A DNA stretch of 64,000 nucleotides from an uncultured Verrucomicrobiae bacterium. Lineage in GTDB: Bacteria > Verrucomicrobiota > Verrucomicrobiia > Chthoniobacterales > Terrimicrobiaceae. The stretch's first letter is position 1. Every line of letters starts with the position of its first letter. The notes under the pieces were generated by a model. It was given only the letters and a program-made list of their open reading frames with translations. It did no database searches and was not told the DNA's origin. Below, in pieces: positions 9,110-41,120 of this stretch. The stretch covers positions 345,906 through 409,905 of the forward strand of contig CAWEOV010000024.1 in NCBI GenBank assembly GCA_963810765.1, written 5' to 3'. Position numbers and translations under genes: made by a program.

Positions 9110-10777
9110 GTGGGACTGGTTGCACTGTTATTTGTTATCGGGATGGGCACCGCCGTGGCAATCGAACCGGCGCGGTTCGCGGCGATGTATGACGACCCTG
9201 CGGTCTTTGAACATGCGCTCGCGAAAGAATCCGTCGCGCCGCCCGCCGGCCATCGCGTAACTGGGATCACCGTTCCGCACCACCTTGTGGCAGCGGACTT
9301 GATCGCCCGCGGCTTTTATGGCGCTTCAGGCAGCAACTACGAGCGGATCATTCTCCTTTCGCCCGACCATTTTAGGCGGTCGCGCCTGCCATTTGCGACG
9401 ACACACGGAACGTTCGAGACTGTCTTCGGTGATGTCGCGTGCGATGAGGTCGCAGTCGATTTGCTTTTGACAGCGTGTCATAAGGCCGAGGAGTCACGTC
9501 TCTTCGCAAAGGAGCACGGAGTGCACGCAGTGCTTCCCTTCGTCGCGAGGTTCTTTCCGAAAGCGAAGATTGTTCCAATCGCTTTGCGTATTGACTCGAA
9601 ACGCGAGGACTGGCTCGCGCTCGTGGACGCACTGACGCCCCTTGTCGATTCGAAGACGCTGATCGTCCAGTCTACCGATTTCTCACATTACCTCGATCAC
9701 GGCAAGGCGCGGCGTTGCGACCAGCAGACGATGAACGCACTTGCGCTTGGCGATCCTGAAGCGGTCACCCGCCTGCGCCAGCCCACTCACCTCGACTCGA
9801 AAGCCGCACAATTTGTCCATATGGCCTTGCAGCGACGTGTTCACAACGCAAGCCCGATCGTGATCGCCAACCGGAACTCCCAAGCTTATACAAGATTTCG
9901 TCTGGAACAAACCACTAGCTACATCATCCAGGTTTATGAGCCAGACGACCCGCCACCAGCGGCTTGGCCGTCCGGGCCGCGGGAATCCGTATGGTTTTTT
10001 GCAGGTGACGCATTTTTCGGCCGGGGTGTAGCTTCACTGCTTGCACAGCCGAGCCGCGCAGAAGCCGTGCGGAAGGAAGTCATGCGCATCACGCAGGAAT
10101 ATCCGCTGGCGGTGAATCTCGAAGGCGTAATCGTCAATTCTGTGCCGGACCCAAATCGCGTGAAGCGCGCGCTCGTCATGGAGAAGGAATTTACCCTTGG
10201 CTGGCTCAGGGCACTGAACGTCAAGCTTGCGGGTGTTGCGAACAACCACTCTCTCGATGGGGGAGAGGCGGGACTCGAACGAACCGTTCGCGCCCTTGCA
10301 TCTGCAGGCATCGCTTCGGTGCGTGATGGAGAGGTAATCGATGCCGGTCCGTTTCGCGCCGTCGCGATGACGGACCTCAGCAACGTTTCAACGCCGCACA
10401 CAGGCCGGATCACGCAGGAGGCTATCGCGCGACTGCCGCAACCGGAAGCGGACGTGAGGCCGTTGTTGGCCCTTGTCCACTGGGGGACTGAATTCCGGCG
10501 CGAGGCGACGCCGAGGCAAATCGAAGTGATGGATTGGCTAACAGATAGCCCCGTGACGGCGATATTCGGCGCTCACCCGCATGTGGATTCAGGCAGGCCC
10601 GAACCGTGGCGCGCCGGCAACGGGCTGGTCTGTCGCTCGCTTGGCAACTTCCTATTTGATCAGATAAACGGCTCCGGGGCACTCGCCGAAGTGAGGTTTT
10701 TCGAAGATAAGACGTTTGCTGTTCGATGGATTCCGGTTAGAAATCTCCTCAAGGCTGCTCCTACAGGTCCTCGATGA
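9110..10777 (+). CDS. fusion protein: Memo/AmmeMemoRadiSam-B-like N-domain plus CapA-family (PGA_cap metallophosphatase-like) C-domain
   Basis: N-half has ITVPHH, EHGVHAVLPF and STDFSHYL (Memo-type motifs). C-half has FAGDAFFGRG, VNLEG, VANNHSLDGGEAGLERT, VHWGTEF and FGAHPH (CapA-type motifs). Confidence 0.72.
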   Translation: MGLVALLFVIGMGTAVAIEPARFAAMYDDPAVFEHALAKESVAPPAGHRVTGITVPHHLVAADLIARGFYGASGSNYERIILLSPDHFRRSRLPFATTHGTFETVFGDVACDEVAVDLLLTACHKAEESRLFAKEHGVHAVLPFVARFFPKAKIVPIALRIDSKREDWLALVDALTPLVDSKTLIVQSTDFSHYLDHGKARRCDQQTMNALALGDPEAVTRLRQPTHLDSKAAQFVHMALQRRVHNASPIVIANRNSQAYTRFRLEQTTSYIIQVYEPDDPPPAAWPSGPRESVWFFAGDAFFGRGVASLLAQPSRAEAVRKEVMRITQEYPLAVNLEGVIVNSVPDPNRVKRALVMEKEFTLGWLRALNVKLAGVANNHSLDGGEAGLERTVRALASAGIASVRDGEVIDAGPFRAVAMTDLSNVSTPHTGRITQEAIARLPQPEADVRPLLALVHWGTEFRREATPRQIEVMDWLTDSPVTAIFGAHPHVDSGRPEPWRAGNGLVCRSLGNFLFDQINGSGALAEVRFFEDKTFAVRWIPVRNLLKAAPTGPR

Positions 10778-12429
10778 CGTAGGCCTCCTTCCACGAAAAC
10801 TTCCCTGGCACGAGAAAGTGCATTCGGCAACGCGTCGAGATGATCTCGCGACGGTCCGCAGTGGTCAGTCGAATTCGAAAGTTCTGGTAGCTTGAGACCT
10901 CGCTTGCGACCTGAAGCGTAAACCGGTCGTTCGCTCCGGGGGCCACTGTCCGCTTATAGGTGAAGGGCACGACATAGTCCTTTCCTTCGGTTCTCAAAAA
11001 AAGATCGTATTTTCCCGATGATGGCCCTCCTCCCGCCCCAAACTCCGGCCAGAACATGCTGAAGCACTTCACAAGGTGAAACTTCACACGCTTCATCTGC
11101 TTCAAACCAAAATAGTCCGTCCACGCGAGTCGGAATTCGCCCGCTACCAGGCCATACGCTGAGAATTGCTCGCCATCCGACACTACCAGGTTTGGTAATT
11201 TTCTCATTTCGCGCTTCGCGCGGAGCGCAACCGATTCTCGTGAGGGATCGTCGTCCTTTAGGCGTTCGATCGCCGCAATGGCGTCCGCGTCAATTCCGAG
11301 CGTTACCATTGCCCGCGCGAGAGAGAAGGTTGCACGCTCTGAGAACGACCCCAGCTTCTCCAGGAATTGGTAGTCCTCAAAGTTCGGTTTGGCATCGCGA
11401 GGGAGGATATTGAAGGCAACCTCGCAGTCATCTACTCGCCCTGAGCCAAAACTCACGATTTCACAGGTCACACCGCCGTGGAAGTAACTTGCATCCGCAA
11501 GTCCCAGAATCGGTTCAAAATCAGGAACGCTTTCCTCGACGACCGCCTCCGCTTGGTGAATCACCAGCTTTTCGCGTCCAGGGTTGAAGATACGGATGTC
11601 GAGAAAAACGGGAAAGACTCCGACATCAAAACTCTTGACCTCGCCCGATTCGGATTCGCCGATGACCGGTCCTCCTTTTGACCATGCAACCCAATAGGGC
11701 CAAGTGGGTTCTATCACGAGGATGTCGTCCATGAAGCGGCCGCCGTAGGTCATGAAAGATTGGTCGCCCGCTCCAATACCTTCGCTTCTGGAAAGGATAT
11801 TCCCATCGAGCGCATAGCGGCGCACATCCACGCCGAGAATCACGTACGGCGCTGCAGGAACAGGAGCGCCGCGGGGATTGGTGTCCTTGCCCGCCTTCCA
11901 GGTCGAGTTATAGCGGCGGCCATCCGGGTAAATCACGAGACCAGGACCGTCTCGCTCATCGGCAACGAAAGCTCCTTCGAAGACGGCCCCATCCGCGGAG
12001 ACATACCTGCCTGGCCCCTGCATGAGATCGTTCTGAAACGAGCCGCTATAGTAATCGCCGCTTGCGTACCAGGTACTCACCCTTCCCTTCCTTCACATTA
12101 TCGTGCCACTGCCCTGAGTATTTCGCCCCGCTGCGGTAGAGCGCAACACCCGCGCCGTGGCGCCGACCCGATTTCATTTCGCCTGAATAGACGACGATCG
12201 ATTCCTTCCGCTTTTGTGTGGGCTTGAACCATTCCAAGACGCCATTGCCCTCGGCTTCGTGACGGGAATTCACTTTGCCGGACCACGAAAAATCCAGTCC
12301 TCTCTCCCTCTCGGAGGCCCAGACGCGAACTTCCTCATCGAATTCAGATGCGGGATGGACCCTCCATTCCGCGCGAATCGACGCAAGTATGACAAAATAA
12401 ACAAGAGGTTGCAGGCGGCTAATTCTCAT
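10761..12429 (-). pseudogene. exported MORN-repeat protein, tandem paralogue 2, interrupted by a +1 frameshift
   Basis: ORFs 12046-12429 and 10761-12080 are collinear with the intact paralogue 12560-14239. The break is at GKGEY|WY.(S/N)GDYY, and alignment to the paralogue shows one extra G at about 12071-12072. Confidence 0.75.
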
Positions 12430-12559: not shown

Positions 12560-14239
12560 TTATTCCTCAATGACGTAACCTTCCTTCCACGAAAATTTAC
12601 GTGGCACGAGGAAGTGCATGCGGCATCGCGGCGAGATGATCTCGCGGCCGTCCGTCGTTGTCAACCGGATGCGGAAGCTCTGGTAAGTCGAGACTTCGCT
12701 GGCGAGTTGGAGCGTGAACCGGTCGTTCGCTCCGGAGGCAATGGTTCGCTTGTAGGCGAATGGCACCACGTAGTCCTTGCCTTCGGCTTTAAATAGAACT
12801 TCGTATTTCCCCGATGGCGATCCCTCTGCGGCCAACTCCGCCCAGAACAGGCAGAATTGCTTGTTAAACTGAAACTTCACGCGCTTCGTCTGCTTTGAAC
12901 CTAAATGGTCCGTCCATGCAATTCGGACTTCGCCTGCGACCAGGCCCGCGGCGGAAAATTGGCCGTCGTCCGATTCTACGAACTTTGGTAATTTCTTCAT
13001 CTCGCGGGTCGCGCGCGCAACCGATTCTCGTTTCGCCGCCGCCCGCTTCGCCTCTGCCTCCGCCTCTCGTGAGGGATCGTCGGAGAGATGTTCGATAGCC
13101 GCAATGGCGTCTGCGTCGATTCCGAGCGTTTGCAGCGCCCGCGCGAGCGAGAACGTCGCACGCTCTGAGAACGGTTCCAACTTTTCGATGAAATGATAAT
13201 TCGCAAACTCCGGCTTTGAATCGGGAGGCAGGATATTGAAGGCGATCTCGCAGTCATCCACGCGGCTCGAGCTAAAATTCACGATTTCGCAGGTCACTCC
13301 ACCGGGGTTCGAAGTCGCATCCTGGAGTCGCAGGATCGGTTCAAGGTCAGGAAAACTTTCCTCGACGACTGCTTCCGCTCTGCGAACTACCAGCTTTTCG
13401 CGGCCCGGGTTGAAAACGCGAATGTCGAGAAAGACCGGGAAGACTCCGATATGAAAATCCCGGGAGGCATCGTCTTTAGATACGACCGGCCCTCCCTTTG
13501 ACCATGCGACCCAAAACGGCCAATCCGGTTCGATCACGAAGTCTCCATCCGTCCAGCGGCCGCGGTACGTCAAGTAGTATTCGTCGCCACTTCCTGAGAG
13601 GATCTTCCCATCTAGCGCATAGCGACGCACATCCACGCCAAGCATCACGTACGGCTTTGCAGGAACGGGAGCGCCGGCGGGATTGACATCCTTGCCCGCC
13701 GACCATGTCGACGCGTAGCGGCGGCCGTCCGGGTAAATCGCAACCCCGGGGCCGTCCCGCTCATCGGCCGCGAACGTTCCTTCGAAGACGGTTCCGTCCG
13801 CGGAAACGTATTTGCCGGGTCCATGCATAAGGTCGTTGTGAAACAAACCGGCGTAGTAATCGCCGTTCGAATACCAGTACTCTCCCTTGCCTTCTTTGAC
13901 GTTCTCGCTCCATTGGCCGGAGTATTTCGCCCCGCTGCGTTGAAGCGAAACGCCCGTGCCGTGGCGCCGGCCTGCTTTCACCTCGCCCGTGTAGATGACG
14001 CTCGAGGCCCGCTGATGGTCCTCGGTCTTAAACCATTCCAGAACGCCGTAGCCCTCGGCCTCGTGGCGCACATTCACTTTCCCGGACCACGAAAAATCCA
14101 ATCCCCGTTCCTTGTCGGACGCCCAGACGCGGACCTCCTCCTCGAATTCGGACGCTGGATGCACCTTCCAGTCCGCATGCGCCAGGGTGCAAAAAATCGC
14201 AAACGTTACAGAGTAACAGATAAGGCGGCCGATTTTCAT
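12560..14239 (-). CDS. exported MORN-repeat protein with ~400-aa C-terminal domain of unknown function, tandem paralogue 1
   Basis: Start chosen at ATG 14239 (MKIGRLICYSVTFAIFCTLAHA, signal-peptide-like), which overlaps the stop of the upstream WD40 gene (ATGA 14236-14239). MORN units are YSGQW..N.KEGKGEYWYSNGDYYAG.F.NDLMHGPGKY. Confidence 0.85.
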   Translation of the reverse strand: MKIGRLICYSVTFAIFCTLAHADWKVHPASEFEEEVRVWASDKERGLDFSWSGKVNVRHEAEGYGVLEWFKTEDHQRASSVIYTGEVKAGRRHGTGVSLQRSGAKYSGQWSENVKEGKGEYWYSNGDYYAGLFHNDLMHGPGKYVSADGTVFEGTFAADERDGPGVAIYPDGRRYASTWSAGKDVNPAGAPVPAKPYVMLGVDVRRYALDGKILSGSGDEYYLTYRGRWTDGDFVIEPDWPFWVAWSKGGPVVSKDDASRDFHIGVFPVFLDIRVFNPGREKLVVRRAEAVVEESFPDLEPILRLQDATSNPGGVTCEIVNFSSSRVDDCEIAFNILPPDSKPEFANYHFIEKLEPFSERATFSLARALQTLGIDADAIAAIEHLSDDPSREAEAEAKRAAAKRESVARATREMKKLPKFVESDDGQFSAAGLVAGEVRIAWTDHLGSKQTKRVKFQFNKQFCLFWAELAAEGSPSGKYEVLFKAEGKDYVVPFAYKRTIASGANDRFTLQLASEVSTYQSFRIRLTTTDGREIISPRCRMHFLVPRKFSWKEGYVIEE

Positions 14240-17200
14240 TGAGATCGTTGTACGGGATGGTTGGGGACGGCAAGGCCGATGATCTGGCGAGCACGCGACT
14301 TCCATTTTGTTTCGTCCAGATCGAGGATACGGACCGTTCCGTCCTCCGAAGCGGAGAAGATGCGGCCGCCGTTCCACGCAACGGCGGCGACCGGACCCTG
14401 GTGCAGAGGCACCGCGAGACTAGGAACGAGCCCGTCAGTCTCCCAGATGCGCAGGTAGCCGTCCGAACCGGCAGCGGTGATTTTCGAACCGTCCTCCGAA
14501 TTCGCCAGATCGTCCAGAGAGCCGCCGACCGGCAGCGTGCGCGCGAGCGCCGCGCCGGATCGCACGTCCCACAACCGCACCGTGCCGTCGCGTCCGCAGG
14601 ACCCGAGGATCTTTCCGCCAGGCAGAAACGCGAGGCTCGAAACGCCGTCTCCGTGCCCTTGGCTGGCCTCCCGAGGAATTTTCAAGCCCGGCTCCGCGCC
14701 GCCCGCAACGTTCCAAAGCCAGATCTCGCCGCGCGTCGACCCCGCCGCAAGCGTTGCGCCGTCCGAACTCCATGCCAGCCCGAGCGCGTAATCCGGCATC
14801 CTTCCAATGAGCCGCGGCGACGCATTGCTATCCGGTTCCCAAACCTGCACGGCGCCGGTGTGACTGGATGATGCCAGCTCTTTACCGTCTTGCGACCAGC
14901 GCACGCGCCAGACGGTCTGGTCGTTCGCCGCTCCGGGCTCGCCGGGTTTCACGGATCGAACGGGATCGCGCGCCGCGCGCTGCCAGAGATGAATGTCGCC
15001 AGCCTCGTTACCGGAAGCAACTCTCTCCTGCCCGCGCTGCCACGCTAGGCAGAGAACGCGGCTGCCAGCGTGCCAGATTGTGCTGTTGGTGTTGTTCCCG
15101 GCATCCCAGGTGAAAATGTCGCCATGCTCGGAGCCTGCGGCGATTCGCATTCCATCCTCGGAGACGGTGAGTGAATGCAGCGGCGCGCCTTTATCATACC
15201 TGATCACCGGACCGAATGCCGCTGAGGGCCGCCAGATGCAAACCGTTCCATCGTTGCCGCCTGAAGCGAGGTGGTTACCTTCCGCATTCCACGCGATAGA
15301 CAAGACCGGCCCCTTGTGCGCCAGAGTACTTCAGGCGGCGGCGCCTGCGCGTCCGGTGCACCAGAGATCGCCCAAATCCGAACCGTACCGTCAGCGCAGG
15401 CGGCGGCGAGGCTCTGACCATCCGGACTCCAAGCGAGGTCCTGAACCCCGCCCGGCACGTTTGACAAGTTGAAAGGTGCCGCGCCCCTTTTGAGAATGGT
15501 GATGTTTCCATCTGCGTCGCCCGCTGCCAGCATAGGTTCGCCTTGCTTACTCCATGCCAGGCAGCGAATGTTCGCCTGAGTTGCCTCCCGCAGCGGCTGA
15601 GTTCCTCCAGTGCTAGAAATCGCAAAGACGCTTCCCGCTTCAGTCGCCAATGCCAATGTTCCATCCGACGCAAAAGCCAGTGCCGTCACGCGTTCTCCAG
15701 AGGATACGGCTGGCGCCGTCTTCCCGGGATCATCGGCTGGTCCAATGAAAACCTCAACCTGCCTTGCCGCATCGACAAAAGCGACCCTTTGCCCGTCGGA
15801 GGAGACCGCGGCGAGGCGCATGGGTCTGCCCGTTCCAAGCGACTCAGTCGCGTTCACGCCTTGCCTTAGAGCAATAACCTTCCCGTCTTCGCGCTGCGCT
15901 AGCCAAGTGCCGTCCTGGCGGCGGGCGATGCAAAGGATGGTCGGAGCCTCCTCGCTATCGGGAACAAATGAAGGTCCGGAGGCCTCACGGCTCTTCGCAT
16001 CAAGAAGTCGAACGGAACCTCCCGCCGCGGCCGCCAGGACATCGTCCGGCCCAAATTCCAACTCCTGCACGGCGCCTTCAAATCCGGTAAAGGAGGTTTC
16101 CAGCTGCGGTGGCGCCTTGGCAAGGGCGGAAAGAAACGCAGATCGTGTCGTGAAATCTGGATGGGTCGAGAAAGCCCGTTCGAGCAAGTCCAGCGCAGGG
16201 CGGATTTCGCCCCGAGCGAGGTCAAGCGTGGCTTGGTGGACTTGAAAATAGGCATCGGCTTGCGCTCGGCGTTCTGCCGCGCGCTGGTTGGCCAAGATGG
16301 CGATCACACTGCCGATCACCGCCAGGCCAATCAGGAGCGCCGCAACGGTCCCGGCGATCAAGCGGTTGCGCTTGCGCCGCCGCGCGTCTTCGTTCGCATG
16401 ATGTTTTGAGGCTTGGATGAAGCCTGCGGATTCCGTAGCCAATGTTCGCCCGGTTTGGGAAAGCAGCCAGAGAGCATCATCGAGCGGTTTGCCAGGCTGG
16501 ATGAGATACGCCGGGTTCCGGCCTTCCTTTTCCCAAGTGGCGCAAGCCGCTTCGACACGGGCGCGCTGCTTCAGAAACTCCTGGTTGGTATCGAACCACG
16601 CCATCGCTCTTGGCCAGCGCGTAAGGAGGGCTTCGTGGGCGACCGAGACCGTCCGCCGGCCCGCTGCGTCCGTGTCCGAAACAAGCAGCCGCGCGGAAAG
16701 CATCGCCGAGACCAGCTTTTCCGCTTCAGGCGTCGGCGCGACCTCCTCGGACTGAGCGCGGCGCCGGATCGGGACCGTCGTCTCGCCGCGATCTGTCTTG
16801 AAGTTCACGAGCGCGGAAAGAACCGCGTCGACTGCCTTGTCCATTCCGGCGCCGGCTCCCGCACTCGCTACCGCTTCATCAGCTTTTGCGGCGACCACGC
16901 CCTCGATCCCGCGAAATTCCAGATAATCCTCCCAGCGCAGCATTCCATCGCCGCGAGCCTTCTGGCGTTTGTAGAGTTCTTCGAGCGCGAATTCCAGCAA
17001 CGGAAGAACCTGCGGATCGGCTGAGGCAGCGTCGCGAAGCGCTTCGTCGAGGCCTTGCTTGGTTTCGGGATGAGCATCGAACCTTAGTCCTGCAGCTCGC
17101 GCCGGGCGCCGGATGATCTGGCCGAGTTCAACCGGCGCTGGTGGAGGGAGATGATAGGAGCCCGTGCCCTCGGCGAGAGCTAGAAGTTGAGAGAACTCGG

Positions 17201-18547
17201 CCAGTCGTGGAAAAAAGTCGCTCCGCATCGTGACAATAACCACGACTGGATTGCGCCGGGAAAGCGCGGCGAGCATCTCGAGAAATGCGTCCCGCTTCTC
17301 CGTCGAAACCCCCTCCGTAAACAACTCTTCGAGCTGGTCGATCAGCAGAACGAGGCGAGCGACTGGCGGACGCAAATTTTGCAATCGAAGGCGCAGTGCC
17401 GCCGCGTCTTCGGGCCGGTTCTCTTCTTCGCGCTGTCGAACGAGAGCCTCGATATCCGACCGCTGGCGCGCTTGTTCGCGCTCGGACGCCACTCGCAGAC
17501 CACTTCTGATCTCCTCTGGAATAGCTGTGTAGTTGGCCTCGAGCGAATAGGGCGTGGTTCCGTGGCCGGTTAGCTCCGGCAGGGCGGATTCGGCCAGCAG
17601 CGCTTCGCGAGACCGAGGAGCACGTCACCGCCCGCATCGGAAGGCTTCATTATTGCCCGACGCCAAAGCCCTGCTGCCCTCGATGACTCCCGGCTCGGTA
17701 AGGACGGGAAGAACACCGGCTCGGGCCAGGGAGGATTTCCTGAACCCGAGGCCCCCAGCACCAAGAGAAAACTACGAGGATCGTCCTTGTCAGCCTGCGT
17801 CTTGCGGAGTGCTTCAATGGCAGTGCTGACCGCCCCAGTGCGTCCAAAGAACATCGGCGCGTGTTCGAAATCGAAAGGCTCGAGGCCACGAAATGGAGAA
17901 CCTTTCGTCCATGCGGGCTTCTCGGGCGGCGCAAGTGTTCCAGGCGAGACGGCCATCCGCCTTTCAGCGACCTTCCGTAGCTTGATCTCGAAGAGATCCT
18001 GAAATTCGGCGATGGTGTGATATGCGGTGAACGAACCGACGAACGAGCCGTCCTCACTGTCCTTTGTCCACTGCTCGATGAATCGTTTGAGGGCACGCCA
18101 TTGCGCGATGCGTTCGTCGTGGACCTCAGGCGGTTCCGGCTGAAACGATGGAATCGTCTGGTTGATCCAGACGTGCAGCTCGGGCAATCCGTTGCGCTCC
18201 TTCTGACTCGCGAGAGCATGGGTGATTTCGTATTCGGTGCCGGAATTAGCTGGGGAGCCGTTCGGAAGCCGCTGCGAGCCGCCAAGCCGCGAGCCGAGAC
18301 GCGACCAAAGCAAACAGAGGACGACGTCGAAAGTCGCTGTGTTCGGAATCTGCTCCTGAAACGATTTCGAGAAATCGAATGGCTCGTATTCCCAGAAATA
18401 CGCGTCGAGCACGATGCGACCGCTGAACTCCGCATTCAGCCTGGCGATCGCTTCGCGCGCGACCCGGCGTTCGTGAGCCACGTCTCCGGGACTACTCACA
18501 AAAAGTGATACCCTCGAGACATTCAGACTGTGTTTGTCTTCATCCAT
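14236..18547 (-). pseudogene. DUF4062-like domain - P-loop STAND NTPase - single TM helix - WD40 repeat protein, broken by at least 4 frameshifts
   Basis: Three collinear ORFs (17570-18547, 15204-17492, 14236-15303). N-domain is VSLFVSSPGDV...NSGTEYE. Walker A GASGSG(K) is broken near 17736-17738, with further frame changes near 17668-17680, 17600-17608 and 15318-15328. A TM helix LIAGTVAALLIGLAVIGSVIAIL (~16290-16360) follows RRRKRNR. WD40 blades include GTVRLWD and GTVRIWA. Confidence 0.75.
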
Positions 18548-18692: not shown

Positions 18693-20733
18693 CTATTCGT
18701 TTTTACCGCGTGAACTCTGATGCGACGCCTCGATGAGCTTGTAGCGTTCGAGGTCCGCTCGTTTGAGTCCCTCGGGCCGGTAACGATGCACGACTCGATC
18801 GAGCATGACTTCGATCCCCGTGAAATCGCCGACCGGTTCAAAGACGGCGGGGTCTTCCAGGAGCGCAAAGACGCCAGGGAAGTCGATTTTCAAAGCTGTC
18901 GGAAAGCCGTTGTTAACGTAAAGAGGTACCCCTCGCTCGTCGGCTTCCCTCATCAAGGAGGCATATTGTTCAACGTGAGAGCCCGGCGGACTCTCGGATC
19001 GTAGACGTAGGGCGGCTGCGTGGTCGCCGCGGTGATGATTCTTAGATTCTTTGGCGCATTCGGGATCCAGACTTGGGCGTGTCGCGAGGACGGATTCGCG
19101 ATAGCGTTCCGCGCCCCACGTGAGCAAGAAATGCCGGGCGGGATGCGAGAGCACGGCGAAGGCGCAAACCAGCACAAAGGCGAGCAAGGGCCCCGCCCAT
19201 CGCGCGGAAGGAAATCTGCGCAGCGGTGAGAATGCCCAAAATGCCCCGGCCGCAACCATGACCGCCACACCCTGCAGCATGAAGCCGACGTACCATTCCA
19301 TGAGCATCTTGTGTCGAAGCACTGCGTAGCCATAAGTCAGGATTCCCGGGAAGATGAGGACGGCAACGAGCCAGCGTGCTCGGGGTTCGACGATCCACAA
19401 GCGGAAGATTCCCAACGCGAAGAGGCCCACAGCAAGAACAACGGCAATGCGAGAAGGCGACCGGATGCGCGTTCGCATGGGGAAGATATTCCATGTAGGG
19501 CGTGGCCGACAGGCCGCTCCTGGTCCAAAGGCTTCCCGTAAGAAACAGAGAACCGACGTTCTTCAGGAAAAACGCGTGCCCGTCAAAATCGCGCACGCTT
19601 CTCAAATAGCTAAGAAGGCCCGGCACACACGGCAGGAACAACTGCAGGAACACGATCCCTGCGAAGGTCCCTGAAACCAGCCATCGCAGAGTGAGGACGT
19701 TCCGCGCGGACGAGAATCGTTCCTCCGTGAAAAGACTGACCACGATGCAGACGTTCAGGATCAGGACCGTGAATAGGGTCGGCGGCCAGGTGTAGAGAAG
19801 AGCAAAATTCGCCATCGCAAGCGCGATCCACCACCTCCATCGTCCTCTATCCAACGCATAGACGGCCAAAAGGCAGCTGACGGGGATCAACAGTGCTACC
19901 AATGCGTAACCTCGCGCTTCGGTTGTGAATCGCAGGTGCCAAGGGTGAATGGCAATGAGCCAGGCCGCCAGCGCACCCTCCCACGCAAGGCCGAAGCGCG
20001 CAGCCAGTAAAGCGACCACGCCCACGAGGAGGATTCCCGACACGTAACTGGGCAAACGGGCTGCGGCCTCGCTGAGTTGCAGCCCGGTGGGCCGCGCCAT
20101 GGTCCTCCAGGCAGAGTGACTCAATCGCGAAAGGATGCTTTGAAATATGTGATTGGTCGTCCCAGAGTTCCAGAGCGTAACTTTCCACGGCAGTTTCTTA
20201 ACCACGACTGTCCCGTCGTCTTGGACGCGATGTGCTCCAACGCTGCAGCGGCGCACGCAATATTCCTCGTCCTCCCAAAGGCTCTGGCCCAGCCGGGGAA
20301 ATCCCAGGATCGCGCATGCGGCCATTGCTCCGCCAACGCAGAGGAAGAATCCTTTCGGAAGCCTGGGCGAGGATTTTTCAGAAGAGTGCGCCGGCAACGG
20401 CCGCGTCCACCACCCAGTCGTCAGCGCCAGGCAAGCCAGCGGAACGAGATTAATGAGCCCGGCCCACCAGGAATAGACTCGGACAAAGTCCTCCAACTTG
20501 CCAAGCTGCGGATGCTCCCAGGGCTTCGGAGCAAGCAGCAGAGCAATCGCAACGAAGGCCATCAGCGCCAGGAGGATGAGTCGCGTGACCAGCGCAAATC
20601 GACTTCGCTCAGGTTTCGTCTTCACCGCAAGCATTGGGGGCAATACATTCTTCTCTAAATGCTTCGACATGTCAGCGGGGAAAGTACCAACGATGCACTG
20701 AATGAAAAGCGGAACGGCTCGGCGCAATGACAC
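18693..20733 (-). CDS. GT-C-type (GT39/ArnT-like) polytopic membrane glycosyltransferase, probable frameshift near 19479-19482
   Basis: The first-loop motif GFPRLGQSLWEDEEY is typical of GT39/PMT_2 proteins. After ...PYMEYLPH the 563-aa frame turns into Arg/Cys-rich nonsense, while the +1 frame (ORF 18693-19478) continues with TM helices. The junction is at a GGGG run. Confidence 0.55.
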
Positions 20734-34816: not shown

Positions 34817-34925
34817 GGATGAGGGTCTTCATCCTGTTACAAAGGCGGCGGGGTTCCCGAGTTTCAGGAATTCTGTTCCTAAAGATGCCTTCACCCGTTA
34901 TTGTTGACCAAAGACCCAATTCTTC

Positions 34926-35693
34926 GTGAAACGCGACCATGGTCTGCCGGAGAGCGCGGCGAGCTTTCACGCCACACGCTGGACGATCGTCATGAGGGCG
35001 GCGCAAAGTCAGACGCAAGGGGGGGAGTCCGCATTGGCCGAGTTGTGCCGGCTCTATTGGTATCCGCTCTACATTTTCGCTCGGCGCCGGGGGCATACCC
35101 CGGATGACGCCGAGGATTTGACCCAAGGTTTTTTCCTGCACCTGCTGGAAAGCCGGGCGCTTACCGGCGTTGACCGGCTCAAAGGCAAATTTCGGTCTTT
35201 CTTGCTGGCCTCTTTCCAAAACCACCTCTCGGATGCGGTCGACCGTGCACGCAGCCTTAAAAGAGGAGGAGACAAGGAATTTGTACACCTGGATGCAGAA
35301 GAGGCAGAAGAACGCTACCGACTCGAGCCGGTCGAGTCTTTGACAGCAGAAAAGATCTTCGATGCCCGGTGGGCAATGACGGTCCTGGGAGAGGCGCTGA
35401 AGAAGCTCCGCCAAGAGTACGCCATCGCGGGAAAAGCGTCCATATTCGAAGCGCTAAAAGTTTTCCTGGATCCTAATAGCAGCGTCGCCCCACCTTCCTA
35501 CGACGAGGTGGCGAATCGGCTTGAGCTTAGCACCGGCGGGGTCAAGACACTTATCCATCGGTTGCGAAAGCGCTACACCGCCTTGTTGCGGGAGGAGGTG
35601 GGCCGCACGGTGTCAGATCCTGCGGAGATCGACGAGGAGATTCATGCTCTTTGCGACGCCCTGGTTGCATCCGAAGGGCGGTTAGGTCCATGA
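34926..35693 (+). CDS. ECF-type RNA polymerase sigma factor of the Ser/Thr-kinase-associated kind
   Basis: The N-terminus FHATRWTIVMRA, the region-2-like stretch ALAELCRLYWYPLYIFARRRGHTPDDAEDLTQGFF and the region-4 HTH YDEVANRLELSTGGVKTLIHRLRKRY are present. The stop overlaps the kinase start (ATGA 35690-35693). Confidence 0.82.
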   Translation: MKRDHGLPESAASFHATRWTIVMRAAQSQTQGGESALAELCRLYWYPLYIFARRRGHTPDDAEDLTQGFFLHLLESRALTGVDRLKGKFRSFLLASFQNHLSDAVDRARSLKRGGDKEFVHLDAEEAEERYRLEPVESLTAEKIFDARWAMTVLGEALKKLRQEYAIAGKASIFEALKVFLDPNSSVAPPSYDEVANRLELSTGGVKTLIHRLRKRYTALLREEVGRTVSDPAEIDEEIHALCDALVASEGRLGP

Positions 35694-37432
35694 AAACGGA
35701 GGACAGACGCGTCTGCCCGAGTTGCGGTAATGAGTTTTCTGGAGCAGTGGAATTCTGTCCGGTCTGCATGTTGCGCGGAGTTCTGGATGAGGAAACGGAG
35801 TCTTTTTCGGAACAAGGCTTCAGCGAGTCAACGCGCGAGGTGGGAGTGGAAAGGTTTGAGCATTATGAACTCGTCAAGGGCGAAGACGGGAAACCGGTCG
35901 AGTTGGGTCGCGGTGCGATGGGCGTCACTTACAAGGCGTTCGACGTCGATCTGCGATGCCCCGTGACATTAAAAGTCATCAGCGAAAAATATCTCGGAGA
36001 CGAATCGGCGCGGCTTCGTTTTTTGCGTGAAGCGCGCGCAGCGGCGAGCGTCCGCCATCCAAACGTTGCCTCGGTCTTCCACTTGGGCAAGAGCGGCGGG
36101 AACTACTTTTATGCGATGGAGTTTGTGGAGGGGCAAACGCTCGAGAGGCTCATCAGACGCTCCGGCCGGCTTGAGGTAAAGCTGGCGCTGGAAATTGCGA
36201 CGCAGGTCGCCGCCGGTTTGGCTGCCGTGCACAAGCAGAAGCTCGTTCACCGGGACATCAAACCAAGCAACATTATGGTGAGCTTGGATGACGCAGGCGC
36301 TGTGACGGTGAAAATCATCGACCTCGGCCTGGCCAAGGCGGTTAACGAACCAGGCAGCACCCAGACAACGATTTCAATACCCGGAGCCTTTGCAGGGACG
36401 CCAGAGTTTGCCAGTCCCGAACAATTTGTGGGAGCGGATGTGGACATCCGTTCTGATCTGTACTCGCTTGGCGTGACGCTTTGGGAGATGCTGACGGGCC
36501 AGGCGCCATTCCGAGGCTCTCCCACTGAGGCGATGTACCAGCATCAGCGCGTCCCCTTGCCAGTTGAACAACTCAGAGATGTCCCTCAACCGCTCGTCGT
36601 TCTCCTTGAAGTCCTCCTTGAGAAAGACCCGGTGCGACGCTTCCAGAGCCCAGCCGAACTCTTGAAGGTGAAGCCGATGGTAAGGGATGCCATCGAAGCG
36701 GGGAGTCCTCTCATGAAGACGATTCGAGTTTTCGTCTCCTCTACGGGCGATGTCCAAAAGGAGCGGATTCTGGCGGATCGGGTGATCCGCTCGGTTGCTG
36801 CACAATTTAACGTGCCGGTGAGTGCCGCCTTTTCAGGTTTCCAACGCTTGGCAGAAGAAAATGGTGAGTCGAAAACCGAAGCGGAGAATCACGGGACGTT
36901 GGTTCTATGTCCCTATTTTTTGGAGTATCAGAGGTTCCAATCGGGCGCGGGATGCAAGGGACAGATCCAGAACACGGCGGAATTTGATCTGGTGATTTCT
37001 ATCCTTTGGTCCCGCCTCGGTGCGATGCTGGACCCGACCTTGACGATGCCGGATGGAAGCTCACCCGGCTCGGGAACGGAATACGAAGTTGCCTGGGCGC
37101 TGGACCACGCAAGCAAGAATAGAGGCGTTCCGCTGTTGCACGTTTATCGCAACTCTTCGAAGCCGACGCCGCCGTTGGAACCGAAAGAGGAGCGCGAAGT
37201 CTTTGTTCGGCAATGGGACTCGTTGCAGGAGTTCTTTGCGCATTGGGAAAAGGACAGCGAGGGGAACTTCGCCGGGACGTGCAACAACTATCGCGACCTG
37301 CAGGAGTTTGAAGAGCTCTTCCGGGAACATTTCCGTAACTTTTTAGCGGGTCAAGTAGAGCGGGAGACCGGACAGAAAGTCTTGGGCAGGAAAGCGCGCC
37401 GGTGGAAATCCTGTCGGATTATCGCGAATTAG
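35690..37432 (+). CDS. Zn-ribbon - Hanks-type Ser/Thr protein kinase - DUF4062-like domain protein
   Basis: CPSCGN...CPVC; G-loop GRGAMGVTYKA; VTLKVI; catalytic loop HRDIKPSNIMV; DLGLA; SPEQF. From about 36715, IRVFVSSTGDV...GSGTEYE is paralogous to the N-domain of the 14236-18547 gene. Confidence 0.85.
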   Translation: MKTEDRRVCPSCGNEFSGAVEFCPVCMLRGVLDEETESFSEQGFSESTREVGVERFEHYELVKGEDGKPVELGRGAMGVTYKAFDVDLRCPVTLKVISEKYLGDESARLRFLREARAAASVRHPNVASVFHLGKSGGNYFYAMEFVEGQTLERLIRRSGRLEVKLALEIATQVAAGLAAVHKQKLVHRDIKPSNIMVSLDDAGAVTVKIIDLGLAKAVNEPGSTQTTISIPGAFAGTPEFASPEQFVGADVDIRSDLYSLGVTLWEMLTGQAPFRGSPTEAMYQHQRVPLPVEQLRDVPQPLVVLLEVLLEKDPVRRFQSPAELLKVKPMVRDAIEAGSPLMKTIRVFVSSTGDVQKERILADRVIRSVAAQFNVPVSAAFSGFQRLAEENGESKTEAENHGTLVLCPYFLEYQRFQSGAGCKGQIQNTAEFDLVISILWSRLGAMLDPTLTMPDGSSPGSGTEYEVAWALDHASKNRGVPLLHVYRNSSKPTPPLEPKEEREVFVRQWDSLQEFFAHWEKDSEGNFAGTCNNYRDLQEFEELFREHFRNFLAGQVERETGQKVLGRKARRWKSCRIIAN

Positions 37433-40407
37433 GCGAACTGAAAGGTGCGCTTGCCAAGCACGCCGAGGCGGTATTCGGCACGTTGCAACCGCATGAGCAA
37501 AGGGCGTTTCCTTTGGTGATGCGGTATCTGGTTACGTTAAGCCAGGGCGAAGAGGAAGTGCCTAACCGGCGGACGGTGCCTTACCGAGATTTCGTGGCAT
37601 CGGGGAAAAGCGACCATGATCAGAAAATCGGCGCTAAAGGCTTTGTTGATCTATTTGTTGAAAAACGGCTGTTGTTTACAGATACCGATCCGCAGGGTGA
37701 GGTTAACGTGTGCGTTGCGCACGAAGCGCTGCTACGGGAATGGGAACGGGTCAAAGATTGGCTGACCGAGAACCGTGAGTTCCTCCGAATGCGGGACCGC
37801 CTGGATTCCAGCCTGAAGCTCTGGTTGAGCCGCGGAAAGCAGAGGGATGATCTGCTCGGACCGGGACTGCCTCTGGCGGAAGGCGAAAAGCTAGTCCAAG
37901 ACTTTGGGCCATCGCTCAGCCGGGAACAGACTGATTATGTCAACGCGAGCATCACGGAGCGAAAACGGCGCAAACAGGCCCAAGAGCAGATCCGTTACGC
38001 GGTGATGGCCGCGATCAGCGTTCTCGCGATCGTCGCCGGTTTTCAATGGTTCCAGGCTGAGCGCCAGCGTCAGGGCGCGGCCCAAGCGTTTAAATCTGAA
38101 GCACAGGTCACCGCGAAACTGCATGAACAGTTGCGACAGGCGAGCTGGGCAAGCTTCAACCAGGCCGAGCGTCAGTTCCAGCTGGGAGAGTGGCGGGAAG
38201 GCATCGCTCTTCTTGCGCGGGCGATCAAGTTCGACCCGGAAAATCAAATTGCTTCAGAACGATTCTTCCACGAGCTAATCGTTCATCGCGAAAAGGCGCT
38301 GCCACCGTTCATCGCCTCCTTTGAACATCAGGACAGTCTCACTGACGCGGTGTTTAGTCCGGACGGTACTCGGATCCTCACGGCAAGCTGGGACCAAACC
38401 GCCAAGCTCTGGGATGCGGCCTCAGGCAAGCTCGTCGCCTCCTTCGCTCATCAGGGCATCGTCTGGCACGCGGCGTTTAGTTCGGACGGCACTCGAATCC
38501 TTACGGCGAGCGCGGATAAGACCGCCAAGCTCTGGGATGCGGCATCGGGCAAGCTCATAGCTTCCTTTGCTCATCAGGCTATCGTTTACAACGCGGCGTT
38601 TAGTCCGGACGGCACTCGGATCCTCACGGCGAGCGCAGACAAGACCGCCAAACTCTGGGACGCGGCCTCGGGCAGGCTCATCGCCTCCTTCGCCCATGAC
38701 GCCGACGTCAACGACGCGGCGTTTAGTGCAGACGGTGCTCGGATCCTGACGGCAAGCGCGGACCAAACCGCCAAGCTTTGGGATGCGGCCTCAGGCAAGC
38801 TCGTCGCCTCCTTCGCTCATCAGGGTATCGTCTGGCGCGCGGCGTTTAGTCCGGACGGTACTCGGATCCTCACGGCAAGCTGGGACCAAACCGCCAAGCT
38901 CTGGGATGCGGCCTCAGGCAAGCTAATAGCCTCCTTTGCCCATCAGGGTGAGGTCTTCCAAGCGGCGTTTAGTCCCGACGGTGCGCGGATCCTCACGGCG
39001 AGCGCCGACAACACCGCCAAACTCTGGGATGCAGCCTCTGCCAAGCTCATCGCCTCCTTTGCCCATCAGGCTAATGTCTACTACGCGGCGTTTAGTCCGG
39101 ACGGTGCTCGAATCCTGACGGCGAGCGCCGACAAAACCGTCAAGCTCTGGGATGCGGCCTCTGGCGAGCTGATCGCCTCCTTTGACCATCAGGATCTTGT
39201 CTTCCTCGCGGCGTTTAGTCCCGACGGTAGGCGGATCCTGACGGCGAGCGCGGATCAAAGCGCCAAGCTCTGGGATACGCCCTCGGGCAAGCTCGTTGCC
39301 TCTTTTGACCATCAGGATGGTCTCTATTATGCGGCGTTTAGTCCGGACAGTTCTCGGATCTTAACGGCGAGCGCGGACAAGACCGCCAAGCTCTGGGATG
39401 CGGCCTCGGGCGAACTGATCGGCTCTTTTGATCATCAGGACGAAGTCTTCCGAGCGGCGTTTAGTCCGGATGGTGCGTGGATCCTGACGGCGAGCGCGGA
39501 CAAAACCGCCAAGCTCTGGGATGCGGCCTCAGGCAAGCTGATAGCCTCTTTTGACCATCAGGCTAGTGTCTACTACGCGGCGTTTAGTCCGGACGGTGCT
39601 CGGATCCTGACGGCGAGCGCGGACAAGACAGCCAAGCTCTGGGATGCGGCCTCGGGCAAGCTGATAGCCTCTTTTGACCACCAAGATGCTGTCCGATGGG
39701 CGACGTTTAGTCCGGACGGTGCTCGGATCCTGACGGCAAGCTGGGACAACACCGCCAAGCTCTGGGATGCGGCTACTCCGACAGAGATGGCTCGGCAGGT
39801 GAAAGAATCGGGTGGCGCCGCAGGGAGAATAGGCTCCTCCATTTCGATGGCCCGCTCAGCCGCGCTGCAAGTCGAATCGCTCTCCGATATCGCAAGCGGA
39901 CTCCGATTTTCAGATGACGGCGCGCTCGTCGCGGTCAATGAAGAACGCAGATCGAAGCTGACCAAGCAATTAAAGGACTTAGCGCAAGACCTTCAACCCA
40001 ACGCGCGCTTCATACCGTGGTTTTTCAGTACCGGAGGTGAGCAAACGATCTTCCCGGCGAGCGACATCAAAGTTATCGAGTGGGTAGACAACGCCCTTCT
40101 CACGAATCCAACTGTAGCCGAAGAATGGGTGCGGAACGCTTTAATCTTCCTCCCCAATCACCCGTTGCTTCATATCGCGCTGGCGGGGTTTGAAACTGAC
40201 TCCAAGCGCGCTGACTTTCTTCGCTCATTCGGCTTGGTGAGGCTCCCGAAAAACAGCGTTGTCTGCACGCGTGCCAGCGAGATGCTGCTGCCGCAACATC
40301 GTCCCAAACTCGCGCTTGCCGCGGTCGATCAGGCGCTCCTCACCGATCCAACGAACGTATCTGCTCAGCGCCTTCGACTCAAAATCCTCGATGCGGTGAG
40401 CCCATGA
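37402..40407 (+). CDS. helical/winged-helix region - single TM helix - 12-blade WD40 array - C-terminal helical domain protein (STAND C-terminal half without an NTPase)
   Basis: The N-part (LSDYRELGELKGALAKHAEAVF...VAHEALLREWERVKDWL) aligns with the post-NTPase region of the 14236-18547 gene. A TM helix YAVMAAISVLAIVAGFQWF follows RKRRK. The GTG start at 37402 is only the first candidate, and this frame opens at 37339. Confidence 0.78.
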   Translation: MEILSDYRELGELKGALAKHAEAVFGTLQPHEQRAFPLVMRYLVTLSQGEEEVPNRRTVPYRDFVASGKSDHDQKIGAKGFVDLFVEKRLLFTDTDPQGEVNVCVAHEALLREWERVKDWLTENREFLRMRDRLDSSLKLWLSRGKQRDDLLGPGLPLAEGEKLVQDFGPSLSREQTDYVNASITERKRRKQAQEQIRYAVMAAISVLAIVAGFQWFQAERQRQGAAQAFKSEAQVTAKLHEQLRQASWASFNQAERQFQLGEWREGIALLARAIKFDPENQIASERFFHELIVHREKALPPFIASFEHQDSLTDAVFSPDGTRILTASWDQTAKLWDAASGKLVASFAHQGIVWHAAFSSDGTRILTASADKTAKLWDAASGKLIASFAHQAIVYNAAFSPDGTRILTASADKTAKLWDAASGRLIASFAHDADVNDAAFSADGARILTASADQTAKLWDAASGKLVASFAHQGIVWRAAFSPDGTRILTASWDQTAKLWDAASGKLIASFAHQGEVFQAAFSPDGARILTASADNTAKLWDAASAKLIASFAHQANVYYAAFSPDGARILTASADKTVKLWDAASGELIASFDHQDLVFLAAFSPDGRRILTASADQSAKLWDTPSGKLVASFDHQDGLYYAAFSPDSSRILTASADKTAKLWDAASGELIGSFDHQDEVFRAAFSPDGAWILTASADKTAKLWDAASGKLIASFDHQASVYYAAFSPDGARILTASADKTAKLWDAASGKLIASFDHQDAVRWATFSPDGARILTASWDNTAKLWDAATPTEMARQVKESGGAAGRIGSSISMARSAALQVESLSDIASGLRFSDDGALVAVNEERRSKLTKQLKDLAQDLQPNARFIPWFFSTGGEQTIFPASDIKVIEWVDNALLTNPTVAEEWVRNALIFLPNHPLLHIALAGFETDSKRADFLRSFGLVRLPKNSVVCTRASEMLLPQHRPKLALAAVDQALLTDPTNVSAQRLRLKILDAVSP
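38314..39790 (+). repeat. 12 tandem 126-bp (42-codon) near-identical WD40-blade repeats, in frame
   Basis: Unit is ASF[AED]HQxx[VL]xxAAFSPDG.RILTAS[AW]D.TAKLWDAASGKLI. Long nucleotide stretches are shared between units, e.g. ACCGCCAAGCTCTGGGATGCGGCCTC. Confidence 0.92.
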
Positions 40408-40553
40408 TCCGTTCACCGAATCTCTTGTGTTCGGCTTTAATTGCGGGTAGTTTCGACTGAGAGGTGAACCTATTTCAGGGTTCGGGGCTCGTTTGGGCAA
40501 GGAGTAGATTTGCTTTACCTAGGAGGACCGAAAAGAAAGAGGAGGCGTTAGGT

Positions 40554-41120
40554 TTGAAAAGACTCCCACACTTGCTAACTGTGGCTTCCGCGGCAGCGGT
40601 CATTGCCCTCGCTGCGACCAATGCAGTTCGTGCTGCCGACAAGGAAACGTTGGATCCTGCCCCGGATAGCGCAGAAAGGGGGCCGATCCTTCTCGTTCAG
40701 ATCGCCGCTTTCCGGGGAGCGAAAGGCAGTGAGACAGCGAATGTAAACGTAGATAGTAAAGGGGTTATCTTAAATGGGTACGATGCCGTCGCCTTCTTCA
40801 AGCAACGAAAGCCAGTCAAAGGGAATTCCGGAATCGAGAGCACATATCAAGGCGCAACATACTTATTTGCCTCGACAGCGGATAAAGCCGATTTTGACAA
40901 GGATCCCGCAAAGTATGCCCCGCAGTATGGCGGATTTTGTGCCTACGGGGTAGTTAACGGAATACTGAGCAACATCGAAGGTAATCCGGACGCCTTCGCT
41001 GTTTACAAGGGCAAGCTTTATCTCTGCGGGAATCAGGCCGCGTTAAGAGGTTTCAGGAGTAATATCGATAGCAATATCGAAAAGGCAGATACGTATTGGC
41101 GTCAGTTAACTGGGTCTTAG
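40554..41120 (+). CDS. secreted YHS-domain protein
   Basis: TTG 40554 lies 8 nt after GGAGG. Signal peptide LKRLPHLLTVASAAAVIALAATNAVRA. GYDAVAFF...ATYLFAS...YGGFCAYGV...GKLYLC is typical of YHS-domain proteins. Confidence 0.72.
   Translation: MKRLPHLLTVASAAAVIALAATNAVRAADKETLDPAPDSAERGPILLVQIAAFRGAKGSETANVNVDSKGVILNGYDAVAFFKQRKPVKGNSGIESTYQGATYLFASTADKADFDKDPAKYAPQYGGFCAYGVVNGILSNIEGNPDAFAVYKGKLYLCGNQAALRGFRSNIDSNIEKADTYWRQLTGS

Follow-up and report, generated by a model that had tools for sequence, protein, structure and literature searches.

A sigma factor-linked Ser/Thr kinase locus of a Terrimicrobiaceae bacterium is probably a deletion derivative of one large kinase-receptor gene

In the phage-defence proteins Swarozyc and Evangelion, as in human TEP1, DUF4062 is described as a TIR-like nicotinamide adenine dinucleotide (NAD)-cleaving domain (NADase); TEP1, NWD1 and NWD2 have the order DUF4062, signal transduction ATPase with numerous domains (STAND), WD40 (bioRxiv 10.64898/2026.05.01.722283; 10.64898/2026.06.25.731849). 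The locus reported here is a gene for an extracytoplasmic function (ECF) sigma factor followed by two open reading frames (ORFs), one for a Ser/Thr kinase (STK) and one, ORF3, for a protein with a transmembrane (TM) helix and WD40 repeats. It lies in a 64,000-nt stretch of DNA, the window, from an uncultured Verrucomicrobiae bacterium of the Terrimicrobiaceae (contig CAWEOV010000024.1, positions 345,906 to 409,905). We consider it probable that this locus arose from one large kinase-receptor gene by a deletion specific to its lineage. Intact members of the gene family resemble TEP1, NWD1, NWD2, the bacterial TEP1-like proteins, Swarozyc and Evangelion in having a DUF4062-type domain (N-terminal in those proteins), a P-loop STAND module and WD40 repeats, with the F, E-Y and Q/W/E motifs. 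They differ from these proteins in that the STAND module is nSTAND1 and not NACHT, a TM helix lies between the nucleoside triphosphatase (NTPase) and the WD40 array, and a Hanks kinase precedes these domains in the same protein, with an ECF sigma gene before it; moreover, the DUF4062-like domains in the window score below the Pfam threshold and the kinase-linked copy there has no NTPase core.

Two other groups of described systems share parts of this architecture. The kinase-associated ECF sigma factors (ECF43, with EcfP/PknT and EcfK/PknS, and ECF59-62, 217, 267 and 283; PMC7826278, PMC8999054, PMC13147305) likewise have no anti-sigma factor and are coupled directly to a Hanks kinase, here by an ATGA overlap. 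However, DAED, which is missing by definition where the ECF43 mechanism operates, is retained in the window sigma factor, and in the intact family the kinase is joined to a TIR-like domain and a full STAND receptor in place of a simple sensor. The nSTAND1 conflict systems (Kaur, Burroughs, Iyer and Aravind, eLife 2021, PMC8195603) have nSTAND1, N-terminal effectors (TIR, DRHyd, S/T/Y kinase) and C-terminal repeat sensors, and ECF sigma genes beside some of them (EACC2-caspase) were noted in the same paper.

The STK-NACHT-TPR (tetratricopeptide repeat, MalT-like) kinases of the same genomes are Zn-ribbon STK + NACHT paralogs of about 1,190 aa, some of them sigma-linked, but they have no DUF4062-like domain and no TM-WD40 part and belong to another STAND clade. 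We take these paralogs to be of the M. tuberculosis PknK type. Fungal HET-E/NWD STAND proteins have highly similar, hypervariable WD40 repeats, and the likeness lies in near-identical WD40 units with variation at few positions (here 12 units of 41 aa); the family described here differs in being bacterial and in having a probably extracytoplasmic array. In the literature we found no description of an nSTAND1 protein that has kinase and DUF4062-like domain in tandem, together with a TM helix and WD40 repeats, and is coupled to a sigma factor. The Verrucomicrobiota architecture of sigma factor and STK, TIR-like domain, nSTAND1, TM helix and hypervariable WD40 array is apparently undescribed.

A reading made from the letters of the window, hereafter the sequence-only reading, had described a sigma factor gene, a Zn-ribbon Hanks kinase gene overlapping it by ATGA, and an ORF with a helical region, a TM helix and WD40 repeats. 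All three ORFs are present where it placed them, and with the junction between the last two they are as follows (positions counted from the first letter of the window):

34926..35693, + strand: ECF-type sigma factor, 255 aa (TIGR02937; DAED in region 2.2)
35690..37432, + strand: truncated kinase ORF, 580 aa, with Zn ribbon, Hanks kinase and DUF4062-like/TIR-like domain (Pfam, motifs)
37402..40407, + strand: ORF3, 1001 aa, 3' remainder of the ancestral gene (Pfam, protein alignment, repeat analysis)
37415..37416, no strand: deletion junction, 982 nt lost (blastn break against relatives)

The kinase ORF and ORF3 overlap by 31 nt, and between them the core of a STAND module is missing. When the nSTAND1 profile (PF20703, 379 positions) was applied, aa 4-148 of ORF3 covered positions 247-378 only (E 6.3e-29). 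Thus, the C-terminal winged-helix/helical part is present (37411-37845) and the Walker A/B core is missing from the kinase-linked locus of the window. The kinase ORF terminates 17 nt past the junction with the residues ...RRWKSCRIIAN, and this end coincides with ...PAWTKGSPFRGLEPFDF of a kinase-free paralog elsewhere in the window, which is the start of nSTAND1. The partial nSTAND1 match and the end of the kinase ORF where nSTAND1 begins pointed to a lost NTPase core and not to an NTPase-free design. Related loci carry L-numbers and protein homologues P-numbers below. In 10 of 10 related loci the blastn alignment is interrupted at window 37415|37413, where the relatives have 981-983 extra nt (modal 982); the closest of the relatives, L083, is 94% identical. 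On the intact L006 protein the loss corresponds to aa 569-896, a stretch in which both Walker A (GASGSGKS) and Walker B (LVIDQLEE) lie. Because 982 nt are 327 codons and 1 nt, the frame is broken. The missing segment is flanked in the relatives by ...CGCCGGTGGAAATCCTGTC|CGTTCC... and ...CTCCGGTGGTC|GGATTATCGC..., and a short imperfect repeat, CCGGTGG...GTC, is found at both ends; a deletion that joins two copies of a short repeat is typical of slippage or illegitimate recombination. The GTG start of ORF3 is 14 nt before the junction and, since the same GTG is present in all relatives out of frame within the RRWKS codons, this start is fortuitous.

The relatives were then used to reconstruct the gene before the deletion. 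The best 120 protein matches (57-94% identity) are from Chthoniobacterales/Terrimicrobiaceae, and the 70 among them that extend past the DUF4062-like domain all have Pkinase and nSTAND1 and nearly all have AAA_16 as well; homologues at 70-94% identity continue from the DUF4062-like domain straight into nSTAND1. An NTPase segment with Walker A and B follows the DUF4062-like domain in every copy with enough downstream sequence (25/25). In seven loci from metagenome-assembled genomes (MAGs) a single uninterrupted ORF is 2054-2159 aa long between kinase match and stop codon (stop to stop, 2065-2184 codons), and Pfam gave Pkinase and then nSTAND1 profile positions 1-310 on the intact L004 and L010. 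As many of the relatives are long-read-style assemblies, the intact left junction was also used as a probe in the JGI metagenomes, whose contigs are of the Illumina type. It matched nine contigs, eight of which have a continuous ORF across the junction, six of these with both HRD and Walker A, and one JGI contig, L090, encodes 2140 aa from stop to stop. A 22-mer over the deletion junction had no match in the JGI metagenomes as against the nine for the intact junction. None of the 13 shorter homologues inspected has the ...RRWKSCRIIAN end; those that reach the junction read into RRWKSCPFRGLNFFD..., and all 13 end at contig ends or frameshifts. The window kinase protein has no entry in the gene-position index. 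Since the relatives all have the NTPase, the junction is unmatched elsewhere and the protein is unrecorded, the NTPase-less two-ORF state is private to the window. Judged by these alignments, that state is a private, out-of-frame 982-nt deletion in a single large gene.

As reconstructed from the relatives, the ancestral gene is one ORF of about 2,050-2,180 aa of Chthoniobacterales/Terrimicrobiaceae-like Verrucomicrobiota. Its domains run from a Zn ribbon and a Hanks kinase through a DUF4062/TIR-like domain, the nSTAND1 P-loop NTPase and a winged-helix/helical region to a single TM helix, 12-16 hypervariable WD40 repeats and, last, a C-terminal domain. In the orthologous subset it lies 3' of an ECF sigma gene to which it is translationally coupled.

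Among the parts left in the window is the Hanks kinase (Pkinase, Pfam E 4.9e-45, about 35900-36646). It follows a CxxC...CxxC Zn ribbon (35714-35770), and all its motifs are intact, namely, GRGAMG (Gly loop), VTLKV (beta3 Lys), HRDIKPSN (catalytic loop), DLG (DFG-type) and SPE (APE-type). The DUF4062-like label given to the domain behind it (36713-37396) holds only indirectly. The direct match to Pfam PF13271 is absent, as the kinase-linked copy gave E 0.13 and 12.9 bits against a cutoff of 24.7 and the copy in the paralog gave no match. On the other hand, 14 of 39 aligned homologues reach PF13271 at E<=0.01 (best 7.6e-6), and three DUF4062 motifs, matched to published residues by pattern, are in the domain: RVFVSS with the N-terminal aromatic residue, GTEYE (37073-37087) with the catalytic Glu-Tyr, and RQWDSL for Q/W/E. 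F10 and E128 are nearly invariant in the homologue alignment A2, and the homologues P0157 and P0170, which carry precomputed PF13271 matches, are 37-39% identical to the domain of the paralog. We therefore assign the domain to the DUF4062 family, a predicted membership that is transitive and by motifs only. The AlphaFold2 (AF2) model is confident (pLDDT 84.6, pTM 0.81) and alpha/beta with five main strands. Foldseek of this model against the PDB gave nothing below E 1e-3; its matches were generic alpha/beta ones, the best TIR match being 4c6t_B at E 0.038. A profile search of PDB sequences with the domain gave nothing useful. Its best match was a weak one of the C-terminal half of the domain profile (37040-37400, aa about 450-570 of the kinase ORF) to the PARP3 WGR domain 2eoc_A (E 0.026); both proteins are NAD-related, and the match is probably due to chance. 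An exhaustive HMMER search with the domain found 1,786 representative clusters, mostly with the domain at the extreme N-terminus of proteins of 1,000-2,400 aa, and it stands behind a kinase in a few clusters only (P0008, P0210, P0071). Since the domain is nearly always N-terminal and rarely behind a kinase, the kinase fusion is a derived minority.

The sigma ORF matches TIGR02937 (sigma70-ECF, NCBIfam) with 53.3 bits against a cutoff of 42.9, and Pfam Sigma70_r2, r4_2 and Sigma70_ECF are all below their cutoffs on it. Its stop codon TGA (35691-35693) shares bases with the kinase ATG (35690-35692). No anti-sigma gene adjoins it, the upstream gene being a divergent MFS_3 transporter (Pfam). Together, the TIGR02937 score, the ATGA coupling and the transporter neighbour bear out the claim of a kinase-associated ECF sigma factor without an adjacent anti-sigma factor. 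In ECF43, the only ECF group with a demonstrated phosphorylation mechanism, phosphorylation provides the negative charge that is missing from region 2.2 (PMC7826278, PMC8999054, PMC13147305). The replacement of DAED by a phosphorylatable Ser/Thr, as in ECF43, was not found in the window sigma factor, which has the canonical DAED of region 2.2 at aa 61-64 (nt 35106-35117, within DDAEDLTQ, aa 60-67). Because DAED is retained, the ECF43 mechanism is not directly transferable.

A census of the sigma-STK neighbourhoods showed that the pairing is conserved in a subset but not throughout. A full-length sigma ortholog (54-95% identity) is directly 5' of the kinase in 9 of 22 DUF4062-positive copies; a 3' remnant of 68-101 aa is all that is left of it in seven, and six have no sigma gene. 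The remnants lie just upstream of the kinase start in L002-L005, L012, L013 and L022. Remnants of this kind look like the outcome of duplications that cut the sigma gene, and they suggest that the module spreads by duplications with the left edge within that gene. Sigma genes were also found upstream of 23 of 67 paralogous kinases in the census, so that fusions of kinase and STAND modules with ECF sigma factors recur in the clade. The same genomes (L023-L082, e.g. L050 10001-13588, L026, L062 and L079) have numerous Zn-ribbon kinase paralogs. Those of about 1,190 aa are NACHT fusions, a MalT-like TPR region being present in some, and other kinases are fused to TPR, FlgO or PEGA.

Upstream of the sigma gene there is a further conserved element:

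34856..34912, + strand: block conserved 5' of the sigma gene (27 sigma upstream regions aligned)

The block, GAGTTTCA-GGAATTCTGTTCCTAAA-...CACCCGTTATTGT (consensus form GGAATTYTGTTCC...CCGYTAT), lies about 15-70 nt before the sigma start and is kept even beside sigma paralogs of 39-62% identity. Within the window the core GGAATTCTGTTCCTAAA has a single occurrence (34867-34883). The block also reads GAGTTTCA GGAATTYTGTTCCTAAA ... CACCCGYTATTGT and includes the palindrome GGAA-N5-TTCC. Its conservation suggests that it may be a promoter or operator. A sigma-70 consensus scan found nothing at the block, and the promoter/terminator consensus scan was at chance level.

ORF3 holds the sensor half of the ancestral gene. 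Behind the nSTAND1 remainder it has a TM helix after RKRRK (37990-38052) and a WD40 array (38314-39789) of 12 near-identical 41-aa repeats (Pfam), and at the DNA level 38309-39773 consists of 11.9 copies of a 123-nt unit with 81% nucleotide matches. The amino-acid variation is concentrated at positions 7, 8, 10 and 11 of the unit, which is the pattern of a hypervariable sensor. The TM flank is more basic on the N-terminal side and the WD40 array is therefore probably extracytoplasmic, a topology predicted from the charges. The conserved C-terminal domain (39790-40404) has no Pfam match. The total length of the receptor ORF also varies among the relatives (2054-2159 aa).

Selection was compared by counting nonsynonymous and synonymous (N:S) substitutions specific to the window lineage against the family baseline. 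After the deletion (0.9 kb) N:S was 22:28 compared with a baseline of 82:209, that is, about twice (Fisher p 0.031, uncorrected), whereas the kinase (10:24) and the DUF4062-like domain (8:13) were at the family baseline. The sigma gene was similarly low (8:21), a figure that stands without a family baseline. This is only a hint that the sensor half is drifting.

The proposed course of events is that slippage between the short CCGGTGG...GTC repeats removed 982 nt in the window lineage. The alignments show that this took the whole NTPase core and shifted the frame; the part with the kinase and the TIR-like domain now stops early, and the sensor half survives as an ORF of its own whose GTG start is accidental. 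In the window allele the sensor, TM helix and switch would then be cut off from the outputs. With sensing and output uncoupled in this way, the window copy is most likely a pseudogene of recent origin; at best it is what remains of a sigma-kinase pair. For the intact family, the external WD40 array would bind a ligand and the receptors would cluster, clustering would drive NTP-dependent oligomerisation of the STAND module, and oligomerisation would bring the kinase and TIR-like domains together; the kinase would autophosphorylate and act on the sigma factor, and the TIR-like domain may cleave NAD+. That the intact family is a TM receptor like the NOD-like receptors (NLRs), with a periplasmic hypervariable WD40 array that senses a ligand, a cytoplasmic nSTAND1 switch that on oligomerising activates both a TIR-like NADase and a kinase, and a transcriptional output through phosphorylation of the co-encoded DAED-containing ECF sigma factor by that kinase, is put forward as a tentative proposal about which we are doubtful.

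Several points weigh against these explanations. The topology, oligomerisation, sigma phosphorylation and NADase activity of the family are drawn wholly from domain content and from the literature on other proteins, and the DAED kept in the sigma factor means that ECF43 phosphorylation does not carry over directly to the family mechanism. For the window allele, the N:S signal is weak and borderline, with no correction for multiple testing. Neither flanking ORF (1.7 and 3.0 kb) contains a stop or frameshift, and AGGAAAG lies 8-9 nt before the GTG, so that both pieces could be expressed. Finally, the locus was judged from assembled sequence, and an assembly artefact, or a 1-nt error that hides an in-frame deletion, could underlie it.

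The intact ORFs could also mean that the window has an evolved, NTPase-free two-gene wiring, in which the sigma factor receives its signal directly from two proteins, one a soluble kinase/DUF4062 protein and the other a TM-WD40 sensor. Both ORFs are open, the GTG of ORF3 follows a Shine-Dalgarno-like AGGAAAG, the 31-nt overlap would permit translational coupling, and the N:S of the sigma factor and the kinase is typical of the family. However, this arrangement was seen in one of the 26 copies examined and was not found in the JGI metagenomes, the best 120 protein matches or the GTDB representatives scanned. An out-of-frame break at microhomology is the signature of an accident, and the GTG is already present, out of frame, in all relatives. 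Thus, we regard an evolved wiring as unlikely.

An artefact of assembly or consensus, with the gene intact in the genome and a 982-nt gap or a 1-nt offset introduced by long-read assembly or polishing, is likewise improbable. The nearest relatives do come from long-read-style (large-contig) 'MFD' MAG assemblies and from ENA metagenome assemblies of that type, and other genes in the window are frame-broken (the paralog at 14-18 kb and a MORN-repeat gene at about 12060). In one such ENA assembly (L085, 16710-18860) the phosphate acetyltransferase and citrate synthase genes are split, and since these are housekeeping genes the fragmentation of ORFs in such contigs is largely sequencing error. But indel errors in long reads involve 1-2 nt, far from 982 nt, similarity between the flanks extends over about 9-17 nt only, which is too little for repeat collapse, and the loss of 982 nt at a microhomology of 3-9 nt would be an unusual long-read error. 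In addition, most genes in the window are clean, among them a beta-oxidation cluster of 6.9 kb and ORF3 with its 3 kb. That the family is naturally organised as two genes or with a programmed frameshift, as the calls of L002 (896 + 1182 aa) and L001 (929 + 351 aa) with breaks inside nSTAND1 might suggest, is hardly credible and was rejected, because the break points differ by locus and follow 1-nt length differences (982 versus 983 nt missing) and both the Illumina-type contigs and the seven MAG loci read through.

The deletion derivative also bears on the second locus of this kind in the window, with which the sequence-only reading had contrasted it:

14236..18547, - strand: kinase-free paralog (DUF4062-like domain, nSTAND1, TM helix, WD40), 3 ORFs (ORF calls, Pfam, motifs)

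The two loci are homologous beyond their WD40 repeats, as had been claimed. In pairwise protein alignment the last roughly 230 aa of the kinase ORF match the N-terminal end of the gene at 17570-18547(-) with 38% identity over 207 aa (E 9e-40), and aa 1-333 of ORF3 are 27% identical over 324 aa, outside WD40, to the post-NTPase part of the 14-18 kb gene (E 9e-23). This second alignment includes the TM helix after RKRRK. The identification of ORF3 with the post-NTPase half of a STAND gene was right. What did not hold is the proposal of two wirings, one NTPase-switched and the other kinase-linked and NTPase-free, because every informative relative of the kinase version has nSTAND1 in the one gene. 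The supposed NTPase-switched counterpart is, in this assembly, split into its three ORFs by at least four frame changes, one within Walker A (GASGSG|KSS, about 17650), two within about 100 nt after it (about 17560-17620) and one at about 15300. Since the paralog is itself frame-broken and the kinase-linked family bears the NTPase, the contrast fails on both sides. Three of these frameshifts fall within about 200 nt around Walker A. The frameshifts could be those of a real pseudogene or of a locally poor consensus. Directly downstream of the paralog are tandem paralogous MORN-repeat proteins, at 10761-12429(-) and 12560-14377(-); the second MORN-repeat copy is split into ORFs of 127 aa and 439 aa by a frameshift near 12060. 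Two overlapping ORFs (563 + 261 aa) at 18693-20733(-), multi-pass membrane-like and with no Pfam match, may be one frameshifted gene.

The kinase-receptor locus has a neighbour on its 3' side:

40464..41120, + strand: secreted YHS-domain protein, downstream neighbour (Pfam YHS E 6.7e-10)

Of 20 module copies in the related loci, 13 have a YHS gene downstream of the receptor gene, and the secreted protein may be a functional partner or target of the receptor. The YHS gene accompanies module copies, duplicated along with the receptor gene, in L001, L002-L007, L013, L014, L083 and L084. PADLOC gave only generic kinase matches (PD-T4-6, mad6) and no assignment to a STAND or defence system.

The window holds a deletion allele and not a natural NTPase-free version of the receptor, and at this locus annotators would otherwise assign two unrelated genes. 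The allele is a natural control in which the nucleotide-binding oligomerisation domain (NOD) is deleted, and the intact family, rather than the window locus, is the more interesting object. It unites three lines of signalling that are mostly investigated separately: pairs of ECF sigma factor and Ser/Thr kinase, DUF4062-type TIR-like NADases, and STAND/NLR switches with hypervariable WD40 arrays. If the receptor proposal is true, the logic of NLRs, receptor kinases and sigma factors would be found in one bacterial operon, and the phosphoregulation of ECF sigma factors would have a second mechanism that differs from that of ECF43. The intact family thus offers a testable NLR-like protein that possibly signals to both transcription and NAD+ metabolism.

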